Part shown: one piece after another, positions 18,678-60,189 of the stretch
How positions within the stretch are numbered: position 1 is the stretch's first letter
Layout of the letters: every line of letters begins with the position of its first letter
Source: Burkholderiales bacterium
GTDB taxonomy: Bacteria > Pseudomonadota > Gammaproteobacteria > Burkholderiales > SG8-39
Reading direction: 5' to 3'
Length of the DNA stretch: 64,000 bases
NCBI GenBank assembly: GCA_050741515.1
Contig: JBOIFD010000414.1
Coordinates: forward strand, 14,599-78,598
Made by a program: the position numbers and the translations under genes
The notes under the pieces: generated by a model
Databases searched by the model: none
Told to the model about the DNA's origin: nothing
The model's input: only the letters and a program-made list of their open reading frames with translations

Positions 18678-19223
18678 ATGCTCACTGCAGCACAGGCGTG
18701 GAAGATGCTCGACGAGGCCGACCTCGTCTGCCCCGCCGCCGAGGTCGACCACGCGATCGAGCAGGTGGCGGGCGCCATCACCGCCGAGTTCCGCGACCGG
18801 TACCCGCTCGTCTTGTGCGTCATGAACGGCGCGCTGTTCTTCTGCGCACGGCTGCTGCCCCTGCTGCGTTTCCCGCTCCACCTCGACTACGTTCACGCCT
18901 CCCGGTACGGCGACGGGATCGACGGTCGCCAGGTCCACTGGCGGGTCGAGCCGGGCGACGCGGTGCGGGCGCGACACGTGCTGGTCGTCGACGACATCCT
19001 CGACGCGGGCGACACGCTCGCCACCATCAAGGCGAAGGTGCTCGAGCGCGGCGCCGCTTCGTGCAAGGTCGCCGTGCTCACCGACAAGATCAAGCCGGAC
19101 CGCAAGCCGATCACGCCGGATTTCCTCGGCCTGCGGATCCCGGACCGGTTCGTGTTCGGGTGCGGCCTCGACGCCCACGGCCTGTGGCGGAACCTGCCGG
19201 CCATCTACGCGCTGAAGCAGTGA
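18678..19223 (+). CDS. hpt: Hypoxanthine-guanine phosphoribosyltransferase
   Basis: 181-aa ORF with the PRPP-binding motif [14 protein letters not shown]. Overall length and sequence are like 6-oxopurine PRTases. Confidence 0.85.
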
Positions 19224-19963
19224 TGCTGGCGATCATCGGGGGCAGCGGGCTGACGCAGCTCGCGAGTCTGGAGGTCACGTTCCGAAAGGCGGCCCGCACC
19301 CCTTACGGCGAACCGTCCGGCGCGCTCACCTTCGGCAAGCTCCGCGGCCGCGAGGTGGCGTTCCTCGCGCGACACGGCTACGGGCACACGATCCCGCCGC
19401 ACGAGGTCAACTACCGGGCGAACATCTGGGCGCTTCGCGAGGAGGGCGCGACCGAGATCGTATCGGTCGCCTCCGTCGGCGGGATCCGGGCCGACCTCGG
19501 TCCGGGCACGCTCGTCGTCCCGCACCAGCTCATCGACTACACGTGGGGCCGGCGGTCGACGTTCTTCGAGGGCGGCGACGTGCCGGTATCCCACGTCGAC
19601 TTCACCGCGCCGTACTCCGAGCCGCTGCGGCAGAAGCTCCTCGCCGCGGCGCGGGCGTGCGGCGAACCGGTTCTGGACGGCGCGGTGTACGCGGCGACCC
19701 AGGGGCCGCGCCTGGAAACCGCCGCCGAGATCGACCGCCTCGAGCGCGACGGCGCGGACGTGGTCGGCATGACCGGGATGCCCGAAGCGGCGCTCGCGCG
19801 CGAGCTCGATCTCCCGTACGCGGCGATCGCGGTCGTCGTCAATCACGCCGCCGGAAGAGGCGAGAGCCGCACCGGCATCCGTCTCGAGCGCATCGAGCAG
19901 ATGCTGCACGCGACGATCGGGCGCGCGCGGCGAATCGTCGAGGAAATGGTCGCGCCGGGATGA
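19223..19963 (+). CDS. mtnP: S-methyl-5'-thioadenosine / 5'-methylthioinosine phosphorylase (MTAP family)
   Basis: Only the last 246 aa of ORF 18080..19963 look real: [13 protein letters not shown]...[27 protein letters not shown]...[17 protein letters not shown]. The ATG overlaps the hpt stop (TGATG). I cannot decide the MTA versus MTI substrate from the sequence. Confidence 0.82.
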
Positions 19964-55223: not shown

Positions 55224-55238
<15 letters not shown>

Positions 55239-56687
55239 GATTTCGATCCGCGTCGCCCCGATCCACGCCGCGAGCGGCGCGAGGTCGCCGAGATTCTCGC
55301 CGTAAAGGAGCTTGAGGTGGGTCGCGTCGGCCTGGAGCTGGCCAAACATCGGGTCGATCGCGACCCATTGCCCGTCGATCAGGCTCTCGTTCCAGGCGTG
55401 GTAGACGAAGCCCTTCAGCTCCGCCGCGTACACGACCCCGTTGGCCACGCGAGTGGGGATGCCGCTCGCGCGTGCCAGCGCGGCGAACAGATAGGCGTGG
55501 CCCTGGCACTCGGCGCCTCCGGTCGTCAGGACGTCGAGCGCCGAGAACACGTCCGCGGGCTCCTTGCGGATGTTCCGCCCGATCCAGTCGAGCATGGCCT
55601 GCGCCTGCTCCCGCGCGGTCGGCTTGTCGGCGACGATCGACGCCGCGAGCGTTCCGATGCGCGGGTCCGTGCTCGGCACGGCGAGCGAAGGCTGGAGGTA
55701 AGTGGGCGCTGGCGGCCCGGCGGGCACGGGCACGCTCTGGAGCACGCACTCGACGGCGACGTCGACCTTGCGGCAACGTTGTCTCGCATCGCTCGGCGGC
55801 AGCGTGCCGGCCGCGGGGCTCCTGACCGAGAGCCTGAGGCTCGTGGCGGTGCGCGGCGCAGTGATCGGGGTCGCGGTCCGGATCAGCCCCAGCTCGAGCA
55901 GCGCCTCGTCCTGTCCGAGCGCGGCCCGGGCGAGATCCCGCTTCGCACGGCGCTCGTCCTCGATCCCGGCGATCAGCACCCCGTTCAGCCCGACTTCGAG
56001 CATCGGCCGGCCGAGCCGGTCGATCCAGGTGGTCGTGCGCAGGCCCTCGAGGTCGGTCGTGACCTTCCACGCCGGGCCCTCGAAGAGCGTGCTTCGCTCG
56101 TAGCCTTCGACGCGCTGCTGCACTTCTGCGAGGCGCTGCGATTCGCCGACGTAGACCGTGTAGCGATACTCGGCCCCGGGAACCAGGCCGCGCACCACCG
56201 GGATCATCCCGATCGCGCTCGCAGGATAGACGGCATCGGGTGTGGACAACACCTGCTCGCTCGTGCGCCCCGCGTTCCTCACCTTCACCCGGAGAACCCC
56301 GTCGCGCCGCACGCCGGCGAGCGCGAGCTCGGACCCGTCGATGTGATAGGCGTACTCGAACGACTCGAGCGCGAGATCAGCCTGCACCCGGTCGCGGGCG
56401 CGCAGCGCGATGCGCTTGTCGAAACCGAGGAACTTCAGGCGGAACGCGCTCTCCCCTGAGATCTCGAACGCCTCGTCGCCGCTCCCCGCGGGTCGCACCT
56501 GAACGTGCGCGTACCCGATCTTGTTCCCGTTGAAGACGATGCCGGTCCAGTACTCCTGCCAGGGCCATTCGGCGAGGCGGTGGTGCGGCGGGGCGGGCGG
56601 GGCGCCCGCATCCTGGAAGTACTGCCCGGCGCAGCCCCCAAGTGCAACCGCGAGGCCGACGACGAGCGCGCAGGCTGCGCGCCGCAT
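55224..56687 (-). CDS. Transglutaminase-like domain lipoprotein
   Basis: 487-aa ORF with a lipobox signal (LAVALGGC). The C-terminal transglutaminase core has Cys in GGAECQGHAYLFAALARASGIPTR and His in FVYHAWNE. Confidence 0.75.
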
Positions 56688-56690
56688 CGC

Positions 56691-57737
56691 TCAACCCTCG
56701 AGCGTGCGGCGGATGCCCTCGGCGGTGACCGGAGACACGACGCCGCGCTCGGTCACGATCCCGGTCACGAGCTCGGCGGGCGTGACGTCGAACGCCGGAT
56801 TCGTCACCGCCACCCCCTCGGCCGCCCAGCGCTCGCCGCGAAAGCCGGTGACCTCGGCCGCGCCGCGCTCCTCGATCGGGATCGCGCTGCCTTCCGCGAC
56901 CTTGGGGTCGATGGTGGAAAGCGGCGCGGCGACGTAGAACGGGATCCGGTGACGGGCAGCGAGAACCGCCAGCGTGTAGGTGCCGATCTTGTTCGCGACG
57001 TCGCCGTTGGCCGCGATCCGATCGGCCCCGACGACCACCACATCGACGGCGCCCCGCTGCATGAGATGGCCGGCCATGCTGTCGGTGACCAGCGTGACCG
57101 GGATTCCCTCCTGCACCATCTCCCACGCCGTGAGGCGTGCGCCCTGGAGGTAAGGGCGGGTTTCGGTCGCGACGACCGAGACCCGCTTCCCGTCGTCGCG
57201 GGCCGAGCGCACGACACCGAGCGCGGTTCCATGCCCGGCAGTGGCGAGCGCGCCGGCATTGCAGTGGGTCATGATGCGCGCCCCGTCGGCCACGAGCGCC
57301 GCGCCGTTGCGGCCGATCGCGCGGTTGACCTCGAGATCCTCGCGCTGAATCGCCTGGGCCTCCTCCGCGAGCTTCGCCGCCACCCGCTCGGGCGGCAGGC
57401 CGCGCGCCGCGTCCAGCACGCGGCGCATCCGGTCCAGGGCCCAGAACAGGTTCACGGCCGTGGGCCGGCTGGCCGCGATCTCGCCGAACGCGCTGTCGAC
57501 GGCGCGGTAGAACTCGGCGATCGAGGCAAAGGTCGGCCGGGCGGCCTCGAGCGCGACGCCGTAGGCCGCCGCGCAGCCGATCGCCGGCGCGCCGCGGACG
57601 ATCATGTCGCGGATCGCGGCGGCCACCTCGGCCGCGGTCGCGCAGGAGACGTATCCGAGCCGCTGGGGGAGCGCCCGCTGGTCGAGGAGCTCGAGGCGAT
57701 CGCCGCGCCAGCGGAGCGTCTCGATGGGTTGCGCCAC
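56691..57737 (-). CDS. mtnA: S-methyl-5-thioribose-1-phosphate isomerase
   Basis: Only the C-terminal ~348 aa of ORF 56691..58685 look real. The GTG at 57737 gives VAQPIETLRWRGDRLELLDQRALP. It has the eIF-2B-family motif VRGAPAIGCAAAYG. Confidence 0.88.
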   Translation of the reverse strand: MAQPIETLRWRGDRLELLDQRALPQRLGYVSCATAAEVAAAIRDMIVRGAPAIGCAAAYGVALEAARPTFASIAEFYRAVDSAFGEIAASRPTAVNLFWALDRMRRVLDAARGLPPERVAAKLAEEAQAIQREDLEVNRAIGRNGAALVADGARIMTHCNAGALATAGHGTALGVVRSARDDGKRVSVVATETRPYLQGARLTAWEMVQEGIPVTLVTDSMAGHLMQRGAVDVVVVGADRIAANGDVANKIGTYTLAVLAARHRIPFYVAAPLSTIDPKVAEGSAIPIEERGAAEVTGFRGERWAAEGVAVTNPAFDVTPAELVTGIVTERGVVSPVTAEGIRRTLEG

Positions 57738-57745
57738 GGGGTGAC

Positions 57746-59740
57746 CTAGATCACGCGCTCGTTGCCGCCGTCGACCGGCAGCTGCGCGCCGGTCGTCTTG
57801 GCGAACAGCGGACCGCACATCTCCGCGGCCAGCTCCGCGACGTCGCGGCTCGTCACCTCGGTCCGGAGGACGTTGTTGCTCTTGTACTGCGCGACGGTCA
57901 TGCCGTAGCGTTGCGCGCGCTCCGCGAGCACCGCGTCGGTCCACAGCCCGGTGTCGAATACCGCGTTCGGATGCAGGGTGTTCACGCGGATCCCGTCGGC
58001 ACCCCATTCCAGCGCCGCGATCCGCGCGAGCTGGTTGAGGGCCGCCTTGGAGGCGGAGTAGGCCGCCGCCCCGGGACCCGGCGCCGGGACGTTTTTGGAG
58101 CCGATGACGACGACGCGGCCACCCTGCGGCGCTCGGTTCAGGTACCCGTGGCACGCGCGCATGAGCAGGAGATTGGCGTCGAGGTTGACGCGCATCGCCG
58201 CCCGCCATTCGTCGCTCGCCAGATCCTTGATGCTGCGGCTCGCCGGGAAGATGCCGGCGTTCAGGATCAGCATGTCCAGGCCGCCGAACGCGAGCGCCGC
58301 ACGCTCCAGTGCGCTGGCGATCGCGCTTTCTTCGGTCACGTCGCAAAGGAGGCCGAGATAGTCGTCGCGCCGGTGAAGGGTTTCGACCGCGGGATTGAGA
58401 TCGAGCCCGACGACCGCGGCGCCGCGCCCGAGCAGCGCGCTCACCGCGGCCTTGCCGATTCCCGATGCCGCGCCGGTGACCCAGGCGACCTCGCCGGCGA
58501 ACGCGAGCGGCTGGCCGGCTTTCTTCAACTTCGCCTGCTCGAGATCCCAGTACTCGACGTCGAAGATGTCCTGCGCCGGCAGCGCCGCGTAGCGCTCGAG
58601 GGCCTCGGCGCGGAGGATCACGTCGATCGTATGCTCGTAGAGCTCCTCGACGACGCGCGCGTCCTTGGCGGTGCGGCCGAGGCACGCCAGGCCGAAGCGC
58701 GGGTCGACGACCACGCGCGGCGCCGGATCGAGCATGACCTTGCGCTCCCCGGCCTGCGGCTCGTGACCGGCGAAGTAATCGCGGTACGCCGCGACGAACC
58801 TTTCGACGTCGTCGCCGAGCATCGGGACGCGCTTCGTCCGGATCACGTGGTCGGGTGTGGCCGGGCCCTGCTGCGAGATGCGTCTCACGTCGCGATGCCG
58901 CGCGAATGCCAGCGTCTGCGCCGTCGTGCTAGTCCGCAGGAGCAGCGGGAACCCGGCCACGGCCGAGATCCGTCGGCGCAGGTCGGCGAGGTCCAACCCG
59001 GTGATCTCGGGCGCCGCGGCCGTGGGCGGGAGCACGACGTCCCAGGCCCGCTTTCGGGTGAGGTATGCCTCCGCGCGTCCGACCAGGTCGAGCATGCGCT
59101 CGTAGGACTCCCGCGCGCTCTCGCCGAACGAGAAGATGCCGTGCTTCATCAGCACCACGCCGGTCGTCCGCGGCGTCGCCGCCCGCGCGAACTCGCGCGC
59201 CACGCGCTGGGCGAGGTCGAACCCCGGCATGAGATAGGGAATGACGACGACCGCGTCGCCATAGACCTCGCGGATGCGCGCTTCGCCGCCGGGCGTATTC
59301 GTGATCGCGAGGACCGCGTCCGCGTGAGTGTGGTCCACGAACTTGAACGGCATGCACCCGTGGAGGATCGTCTCGATCGACGGCGCCGGGGCCGACGCCC
59401 GGACCATGTGGGTGACGAGCTCGTTGACCATGTCCGGGTCGGACAGGCGTTCGAGCCCGGCGAGCTTGCGCACGTGGTCGAGCCGCACCGGGGAGAACCC
59501 GGCCGGCTCGATCGACTCGAGGTCCCAGCCGCTGCCCTTGACGTACAGGATCGCCTCGTCCTCGCCGAAGCGGTTGCGCTCCGAGATCTTCACCGATGTG
59601 TTGCCGCCGCCGTGCAGGACGAGCGACTTGTCGCGTCCGAGCAGCCGCGAGGTGTACACGCGCTGCGCAAGGTCGCCGGTGAAAGCGGCGGCTTCGGCGT
59701 CCTGCCAGAGACTCTGCATCGAAAGTATTATAGCGGCCAC
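57746..59740 (-). CDS. Bifunctional class II aldolase/adducin-domain + short-chain dehydrogenase protein
   Basis: 664-aa ORF. The N-terminal ~400 aa are of the class II aldolase type (VLHGGGNTSVKI...VKGSGWDL...FVDHTHADAV). The C-terminal SDR has VTGAASGIGKAAV and the YxxxK motif YSASKAAL. The start is GTG at 59740 with GGAGG upstream, or ATG at 59719. Confidence 0.8.
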   Translation of the reverse strand: MAAIILSMQSLWQDAEAAAFTGDLAQRVYTSRLLGRDKSLVLHGGGNTSVKISERNRFGEDEAILYVKGSGWDLESIEPAGFSPVRLDHVRKLAGLERLSDPDMVNELVTHMVRASAPAPSIETILHGCMPFKFVDHTHADAVLAITNTPGGEARIREVYGDAVVVIPYLMPGFDLAQRVAREFARAATPRTTGVVLMKHGIFSFGESARESYERMLDLVGRAEAYLTRKRAWDVVLPPTAAAPEITGLDLADLRRRISAVAGFPLLLRTSTTAQTLAFARHRDVRRISQQGPATPDHVIRTKRVPMLGDDVERFVAAYRDYFAGHEPQAGERKVMLDPAPRVVVDPRFGLACLGRTAKDARVVEELYEHTIDVILRAEALERYAALPAQDIFDVEYWDLEQAKLKKAGQPLAFAGEVAWVTGAASGIGKAAVSALLGRGAAVVGLDLNPAVETLHRRDDYLGLLCDVTEESAIASALERAALAFGGLDMLILNAGIFPASRSIKDLASDEWRAAMRVNLDANLLLMRACHGYLNRAPQGGRVVVIGSKNVPAPGPGAAAYSASKAALNQLARIAALEWGADGIRVNTLHPNAVFDTGLWTDAVLAERAQRYGMTVAQYKSNNVLRTEVTSRDVAELAAEMCGPLFAKTTGAQLPVDGGNERVI

Positions 59741-59760: not shown

Positions 59761-60189
59761 ATGCGCGAAGTGTCGGTTCGAATTCTCGCCTGGCCCGATG
59801 CGGAGACCGACGCGATGCGCGTCCGGGACGCGGTGTTCGTCGTCGAGCAGGGCGTGCCCCGCGAGATCGAGCGCGACGCCTGGGATCAGTGCTCCGATCA
59901 TGCGCTCGCCCTCGACCGCGACGGCCGGGTCGTGGGTACTGGACGCCTGCTGCCGGACGGCCACATCGGCCGGATGGCGGTGCTGCGGGAATGGCGCGGG
60001 CACGGGATCGGCGGCCGCATCCTCGGCGCGCTCGTGGCTTGTGCGCGGGAGCGGGGGATGAAACGAGTCGTCCTCAATGCCCAGACGCACGCGGCGCCGT
60101 TTTACGCCGGTCACGGATTCGCCGCGTTCGGCGACGAGTTCATGGAAGCGGGCATCCCGCACGTTGCGATGGCGCGCGAGATCAGCTGA
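59761..60189 (+). CDS. GNAT-family N-acetyltransferase
   Basis: 142-aa ORF with the acetyl-CoA-binding motif VLREWRGHGIGGRILGAL and the end of the GNAT fold NAQTHAAPFYAGHGF. Confidence 0.8.
   Translation: MREVSVRILAWPDAETDAMRVRDAVFVVEQGVPREIERDAWDQCSDHALALDRDGRVVGTGRLLPDGHIGRMAVLREWRGHGIGGRILGALVACARERGMKRVVLNAQTHAAPFYAGHGFAAFGDEFMEAGIPHVAMAREIS

Follow-up and report, generated by a model that had tools for sequence, protein, structure and literature searches.

A class II aldolase fused to a short-chain dehydrogenase and linked to mtnA: a probable alternative to the Ald2 aldolase in a DHAP-shunt-type route for S-adenosylmethionine by-products in Burkholderiales

In a 64,000-nucleotide stretch of contig JBOIFD010000414.1 (hereafter the window), the gene for S-methyl-5-thioribose-1-phosphate isomerase, mtnA, lies directly downstream of a gene whose product joins a class II aldolase to a classical short-chain dehydrogenase/reductase (SDR). 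The contig belongs to a metagenome-assembled genome (MAG) of an uncultured soil/sediment bacterium of the Burkholderiales (3.6 Mb, 445 contigs, 89% complete). We consider it probable, at roughly three chances in four, that this fusion acts as the aldolase of a route of the dihydroxyacetone phosphate (DHAP) shunt type for 5'-methylthioadenosine (MTA) as well as 5'-deoxyadenosine, in which it would replace the aldolase Ald2 and add the processing of the released aldehyde. Both compounds are unavoidable and inhibitory by-products of S-adenosylmethionine (SAM) chemistry. The domain identity of the protein, its intact catalytic motifs, the linkage of the genes and the phyletic pattern form the basis of this proposal, and we infer the substrates, the products and the redox direction.

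Two published systems frame the proposal. In the DHAP shunt, either MtnP or the pair MtnN and MtnK acts ahead of MtnA, which is followed by Ald2, and the products are DHAP and 2-(methylthio)acetaldehyde or acetaldehyde (PMC6079011, PMC10986504, PMC13474568). The published end product is an alcohol, formed through an unidentified alcohol dehydrogenase (PMC13474568, PMC10986504), and a 2026 review describes the enzyme acting on 2-methylthioacetaldehyde as still unknown (PMC13474568). The second system is the bifunctional enzyme RhaEW, which cleaves rhamnulose-1-phosphate and oxidises lactaldehyde with NAD+; it is inactive with NADH and yields no products without NAD+ (Rodionova et al., 2013; PMC3870299). 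On these two precedents, we propose that the fusion would cleave the product of MtnA and oxidise the resulting aldehyde.

Both open reading frames (ORFs) are present on the minus strand as an earlier, sequence-only note on this DNA had described them, with 664 codons (57746-59740) and 348 codons (56691-57737), in a window of about 70% G+C. The junction sequence also bears out the reported spacing of 8 nucleotides: the TAG stop of the fusion gene (57746-57748) is followed by the 8-nucleotide spacer GTCACCCC and the GTG start of mtnA at 57737. The 664-residue length given for the fusion protein holds for the ORF and probably not for the protein itself. Since homologues are 657 residues long and begin with MQSLW, the start is most likely the ATG at 59719 instead of the GTG at 59740, which would give a protein of 657 residues. 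The residue numbers used here count from GTG 59740 (the 664-residue ORF). The central features are the following.

57746..59719, minus strand: fusion gene, encoding a 657-residue protein of class II aldolase, linker domain and SDR (NF006196, 1043 bits; alternative upstream GTG at 59740)
59036..59719, minus strand: RhaE-type class II aldolase domain, residues 8-235 of the 664-residue ORF (Pfam Aldolase_II, 80 bits; PDB 3m4r)
58511..59035, minus strand: middle domain, residues 236-410 (matched only by PRK08324-family models)
57749..58510, minus strand: classical SDR domain, residues 411-664 (Pfam adh_short_C2, 3.6e-41; invariant columns; Foldseek)
56691..57737, minus strand: mtnA, S-methyl-5-thioribose-1-phosphate isomerase (TIGR00512, NF004326)

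The fusion belongs to NCBIfam NF006196 (PRK08324.2-4, bifunctional aldolase/short-chain dehydrogenase), which it matches end to end (residues 8-664 against profile positions 1-657 of 657) with 1043.3 bits against a cut-off of 831. In Pfam, residues 28-227 match Aldolase_II and residues 418-659 match adh_short/adh_short_C2, and the motifs TGAASGIGKA and YSASK are both found in the SDR part, in agreement with the N-terminal aldolase and C-terminal classical SDR recognised in the earlier note. The protein has the full PRK08324/RhaEW-type architecture, that is, an aldolase with a histidine triad and phosphate motifs, a middle domain, and an SDR with TGxxxGxG and YxxxK. In an alignment of 32 sequences, conservation in the aldolase domain extends to H137, H139 and H200 as metal ligands, to E123 as the catalytic acid, and to the phosphate-binding motifs GGGNTS and KGSG. 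The SDR domain features NAG, N519 and the Ser-Tyr-Lys triad (Y561, K565), and an aspartate at the end of the second beta-strand (D447) is invariant in the alignment columns and indicates a putative preference for NAD(H) as cofactor.

An AlphaFold model of the fusion (pLDDT 91.6, pTM 0.90) contains both folds. The closest solved structure to its aldolase domain is PDB 3m4r, the N-terminal class II aldolase domain of a conserved Thermoplasma acidophilum protein (43% identity and an E-value of 1e-53 by sequence, TM 0.93 by fold), which differs in comprising the aldolase domain alone, without a middle domain or SDR. The SDR domain superposes in Foldseek on NAD-dependent SDRs (TM 0.84-0.90). The alignment and the confident model support the view that both halves of the fusion are catalytically intact.

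Scanned alone, the aldolase domain matched only models of the PRK08324 family, and the models for MtnB, FucA, classical RhaD and ribulose-5-phosphate epimerase reached at most 22 bits on it (MtnB 17 bits). By these scores it is a domain of the RhaE type, remote from the FucA/Ald2/MtnB group, and at such scores FucA, RhaD and MtnB are too distant for a meaningful alignment. The middle domain has no Pfam family and no model match outside the PRK08324 family; it is conserved throughout that family and is kept in short mtnA-linked forms that have no working SDR.

The adjacency of the fusion and mtnA recurs among relatives. We collected 80 orthologous loci (64-94% identity to the fusion), mostly from uncultured Burkholderiales and also from Gallionellaceae, Sulfuricaulis, Nitrosomonadaceae, a Zetaproteobacteria MAG and other lineages. 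The mtnA gene is present in 47 of the 80, mostly 5-240 nucleotides downstream on the same strand, and because it recurs in this way the adjacency is not a matter of chance. The phosphorylase gene MTAP is found in 13 of these loci and apt in 8, at least one of the three genes in 55, and four loci (L039, L064, L066 and L081) have the gene order fusion-MTAP-apt-mtnA.

We further analysed the distribution of these enzymes in one sample of 251 Burkholderiales genomes, of which 137 score above the cut-off for MtnA and 2 above that for MtnB. NF006196 exceeds its cut-off in 30 genomes, 29 of which also have MtnA; in the exception, the fusion lies at a contig end. Among these 30, mtnA is adjacent to the fusion or within 1.6 kb of it in 23, and one of the two genes is cut by a contig end in 5. 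About 27 further genomes carry a shorter or incomplete relative, most with the aldolase and middle domains, which stands directly beside mtnA in 18. A RhaE-type form, full or short, is present in 57 of the 251 genomes, 55 of them with MtnA. The short mtnA-adjacent forms (L154-L158, L095, L105 and L106) comprise 393-565 residues in the reading taken from the loci and have retained both the aldolase and the middle domain; where they were aligned, their SDR is a decayed remnant in which neither the glycine motif nor the Tyr-Lys pair survives. By sequence, they look like fusions in the process of losing the dehydrogenase half.

In some MtnA-positive relatives without a fusion, a different aldolase takes the corresponding place. 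The three examined loci (L096, L102 and L103) have the gene order MTAP-aldolase-apt-mtnA, in which the aldolase is a class II enzyme of about 212 residues that resembles FucA and DrdA (PDB 1fua, 1e-54; the Bacillus thuringiensis DrdA entry 6btd, 7e-48). Searched with a profile of this small aldolase, 64 of the 251 genomes proved to carry it, mostly next to mtnA, and 62 of the 64 have MtnA. The small-aldolase set (64) and the RhaE-type set (57) show zero overlap, and between them they cover 117 of the 137 genomes that have MtnA. Such a pattern is the signature that would be expected of two alternative enzymes for one step. As part of the overall proposal, and with the same degree of confidence, the fusion would then stand in for the small FucA-like Ald2/DrdA aldolase as a non-orthologous replacement and contribute the aldehyde step in addition. 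The fusion-MTAP-apt-mtnA clusters, together with this exclusivity, support the suggestion of the earlier note that the fusion processes the MtnA product.

The three-part layout of a RhaE-type aldolase, a middle domain and a C-terminal SDR, all within one PRK08324 superfamily, is shared with RhaEW/YuxG (TIGR02632), as had been noted for the rhamnulose-1-phosphate aldolase/lactaldehyde dehydrogenase. The fusion probably also shares with RhaEW the cleavage of a ketose-1-phosphate to DHAP and the processing of the aldehyde in one polypeptide. However, with 450.7 bits it stays below the TIGR02632 cut-off of 567.75, and in a genome-wide search with this model it scored 449 bits, compared with 954-1204 for true members. 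Compared with RhaEW domain by domain, it is 33-39% (aldolase), 28-35% (middle domain) and 33-38% (SDR) identical, and about 40 positions are fixed differently in the two groups; for instance, the catalytic acid is E123 in the fusion and an aspartate in RhaEW. In a tree of 81 rows computed from the columns that cover the aldolase and middle domains (quick search in IQ-TREE, LG+G4), the window protein falls into the NF006196 clade, in a 40-row group with mtnA-linked forms (SH-aLRT 93). The short forms adjacent to mtnA (support 98) are the sister group of the NF006196 clade (SH-aLRT 93), and RhaEW forms a clade of its own (SH-aLRT 100, branch length 1.04). Both the score and the tree keep the fusion apart from the rhamnulose-1-phosphate enzymes, an outcome that favours the interpretation in the earlier note, as do those of the other checks named there that could be made in silico.

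The genomic partners differ as well: mtnA, MTAP and apt for the fusion, and rhaI, rhaB and a rhamnose transporter for RhaEW. In the window, the fusion has genes for MtnA, a lipoprotein, a GNAT protein and a TANGO2 protein as neighbours, not a rhamnose locus. No rhamnose genes were found in the host either, where a genome-wide search of the 89% complete MAG detected no rhamnulokinase and no rhizobial-type rhamnose isomerase (TIGR02629). True RhaEW genes used as controls (L149, L152) do adjoin genes for L-rhamnose isomerase and the rhamnose ABC transporter (RhaS). Low-scoring full-length copies from three Burkholderiales genomes without MtnA (G124, G164 and G249) fall into the RhaEW clade, and one of these loci (L152) lies beside L-rhamnose isomerase. 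Alphaproteobacterial full-length paralogues below the cut-off have no mtnA in flanks of 1.5-4 kb, apart from an apt gene in L138. Four Rhizobium-like genomes (G362, G498, G523 and G425; L145-L148) carry two fused aldolase-SDR genes each, one a true RhaEW in a rhamnose locus and the other a paralogue that scores about 490 bits and for which no mtnA occurs within 4 kb.

The gene content of the host genome, in which the fusion is a single copy, was surveyed for the other steps. MtnA is well matched by its models (TIGR00512, 455 bits with a cut-off of 279; NF004326, 474 bits) and belongs to the IF-2B/MtnA family in Pfam, and the model for ribose-1,5-bisphosphate isomerase remains below its cut-off on this ORF. 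Genome-wide, none of MtnB, MtnC and MtnD exceeds its cut-off (TIGR03328, best 34 bits; TIGR01691, best 21 bits; PF03079, none), which extends beyond the window the absence of mtnB, mtnC and mtnD that the earlier note had reported. The set required for canonical methionine salvage was thus not found in this 89% complete genome. The genome-wide search likewise found neither MtnK nor MtnN. From the DHAP shunt, the genome has MtnA and a phosphorylase presumed to yield the 1-phosphate, and the search detected no FucA-like aldolase of about 210 residues of the Ald2/DrdA type, the best match to the small-aldolase profile being 56 bits, compared with 189-430 for members.

The phosphorylase is encoded in the window, next to a phosphoribosyltransferase gene.

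19223..19963, plus strand: MTAP-family phosphorylase, best matched by the model for S-methyl-5'-thioinosine (MTI) phosphorylase (NF006599, TIGR01694)
18678..19223, plus strand: hpt, hypoxanthine-guanine phosphoribosyltransferase (NF006605, 226 bits, cut-off 181)

The phosphorylase is the only MTAP-family match found in the genome. Its assignment to this family in the earlier note stands, as it passes TIGR01694 (MTAP; 287 bits, cut-off 275), but it fits the MTI phosphorylase model NF006599 better (396 bits, cut-off 223). The two genes share a single base, position 19223, with which the stop codon of hpt ends and the start codon of the phosphorylase gene begins. By analogy with apt beside MTAP in the relatives, hpt would salvage the released base. 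The fit to the MTI model and the overlap with hpt, while relatives pair MTAP with apt, suggest that this lineage routes MTA via deamination and hypoxanthine salvage.

With the DHAP shunt of Rhodospirillum rubrum, extraintestinal pathogenic (ExPEC) E. coli and Bacillus thuringiensis (Ald2/DrdA, EC 4.1.2.62), the proposed route has in common an MTAP-family phosphorylase and MtnA upstream, a cluster layout with apt and MTAP in relatives, and the predicted cleavage products. It differs in that the aldolase is a remote RhaE-type paralogue instead of the FucA-like Ald2/DrdA of about 212 residues, that this aldolase carries an attached dehydrogenase, for a step to which the published pathway assigns no enzyme, and that the phosphorylase in this genome is of the MTI type and paired with hpt. 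In the sequence of reactions that we envisage, the MTAP/MTI-type phosphorylase would release 5-methylthioribose-1-phosphate or 5-deoxyribose-1-phosphate, and MtnA would isomerise this 1-phosphate to the ribulose-1-phosphate. The RhaE-type domain would cleave the latter into DHAP and 2-(methylthio)acetaldehyde or acetaldehyde, and the attached NAD-dependent SDR domain would convert the reactive aldehyde on the spot. By analogy with RhaEW, we lean slightly towards an SDR that oxidises the aldehyde to 2-(methylthio)acetate or acetate and not one that reduces it to the alcohol. A more specific version, which we put forward tentatively and at somewhat short of even odds, would make the NF006196 subfamily an "oxidative" DHAP-shunt enzyme. 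It would cleave its substrate and oxidise the product with NAD+ to 2-(methylthio)acetate or acetate without releasing the toxic aldehyde, its aldolase turnover would depend on the dehydrogenase as in RhaEW, and in this genome it would be fed via the methylthioinosine branch with hypoxanthine salvage.

The explanation that departs least from this scheme retains the pathway and the aldol cleavage and has the SDR reduce the aldehyde with NADH to 2-(methylthio)ethanol or ethanol, as in the classical shunt of Rhodospirillum rubrum and E. coli. It would agree with the alcohol end product and the unidentified alcohol dehydrogenase of the published shunt (PMC13474568; PMC10986504), and most classical SDRs act as carbonyl reductases or alcohol dehydrogenases. 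However, RhaEW, the sole relative that has been characterised, uses NAD+ to oxidise its aldehyde and does not act with NADH (PMC3870299), and the invariant D447, which indicates NAD(H) over NADPH, would favour oxidation in aerobic cells. We therefore regard reduction as rather unlikely, although clearly the strongest of the alternatives.

A departure in the chemistry itself, in which the aldolase-fold domain would be an MtnB-like dehydratase, or another lyase or an epimerase, acting on the MtnA product and feeding a methionine-regenerating route while the SDR reduces a diketo intermediate, appears improbable to us. MtnB itself is a class II aldolase-fold enzyme (PMC6302742), and sequence alone does not fix the chemistry. 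Yet MtnC and MtnD were not found in the genome, the MtnB model reaches only 17 bits on the aldolase domain, the enzyme with which the fusion is interchangeable in the cluster is of the FucA/DrdA type and not MtnB, and the nearest characterised relative, RhaEW, is a true aldolase. Least probable of all, and only marginally credible, is an ordinary RhaEW-type L-rhamnulose-1-phosphate aldolase/lactaldehyde dehydrogenase, or an enzyme for another deoxy-sugar phosphate, with an incidental mtnA next to it. This is what public annotation implies, since JGI labels homologues of the fusion "rhamnose utilization protein RhaD", and it draws on the architecture common to the fusion and RhaEW and on the orthologous loci that have no mtnA nearby. 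The score below the TIGR02632 cut-off and the distinct clade argue against it, as do the genome without detected rhamnulokinase or rhamnose isomerase, the presence of MtnA in 29 of the 30 genomes over the NF006196 cut-off, and the occurrence of true Burkholderiales RhaEW (G124, G164, G249) in genomes without MtnA, at L152 beside rhamnose isomerase.

Several observations weigh against our proposal of a DHAP-shunt-type aldolase. In about 15 of the 80 orthologous loci, the sequence downstream of the fusion spans at least 2.5 kb, and 6 kb in 14 of these, and none of mtnA, MTAP and apt lies nearby. Six other class II aldolase/adducin-family genes in the genome might conceivably act on the MtnA product; they fall into the PRK07044, PRK06486 and PRK06208 families, which are uncharacterised, or are decarboxylase-like, and none is of the Ald2, FucA or MtnB type. 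The phosphorylase best fits the MTI model, yet no MTA deaminase reaches a curated cut-off: the PA3170-type model NF006549 has no match over its cut-off in the genome, and the three amidohydrolases found there are a guanine deaminase, a PRK12393 member and a relative of 5'-deoxyadenosine deaminase (253 bits, cut-off 522). The best MTA deaminase candidate, on contig C322 (L113:127-2274), lies below the curated cut-off, and for this reason the MTI branch is not established. As related genomes are not independent, the mutual exclusivity of the two aldolases overstates its statistical weight. The redox direction draws only on analogy with an SDR domain of 33-38% identity, that of RhaEW, and gene absences are provisional in a MAG that is 89% complete and divided into 445 contigs.

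The gene downstream of mtnA encodes a lipoprotein with a transglutaminase core.

55224..56687, minus strand: transglutaminase-core lipoprotein gene (Pfam Transglut_core, 2.5e-19)

Its ATG lies only 3 nucleotides past the mtnA stop, so that the two genes are closely coupled in translation and probably share one transcript. A lipoprotein gene of this kind is found downstream of mtnA in 21 of the 80 orthologous loci by tblastn, in 2 of the 21 not directly, and clustering of called ORFs groups 15 of them. No metabolic link to the pathway is apparent, and we propose no pathway role for it. On the other side, the fusion gene is preceded by genes for a GNAT acetyltransferase and a TANGO2 protein. The GNAT gene is divergent (ATG at 59761), with 41 nucleotides between it and the fusion gene. 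The TANGO2-family gene (PF05742; 60182-61027) lies just upstream of the GNAT gene and is syntenic with the fusion in about 27 related loci. A perfect TATAAT on the minus strand (59727-59732) ends 7 nucleotides before the fusion ATG at 59719, a position that would be compatible with a leaderless or near-leaderless transcript. The search gave no -35 match for it, and a promoter scan of the minus strand upstream of the fusion detected no consensus sigma-70 site. A terminator scan returned one terminator-like hairpin, inside a coding region, which is no more than chance expectation.

We found no paper in the literature that links an aldolase-SDR fusion to MtnA or the DHAP shunt, or that describes a methylthioacetate/methylthioacetaldehyde step for it. 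Because MtnA is common in the sampled Burkholderiales and MtnB almost absent, it is the enzyme after MtnA that decides the fate of the SAM by-products in these bacteria. Our comparisons indicate two apparently interchangeable solutions for this position, namely the published small Ald2 aldolase and an unpublished RhaE-type form that is usually fused to a dehydrogenase. If confirmed, this would correct a widespread annotation error, the labelling of the fusion as a rhamnose protein, would provide a clear case of non-orthologous displacement and would supply a candidate for the aldehyde-processing step that reviews list as unknown. Should the oxidative reading be true, the missing aldehyde-handling enzyme of the shunt would be identified for a large set of environmental bacteria, and 2-(methylthio)acetate would be predicted as a new sulfur end product or intermediate.

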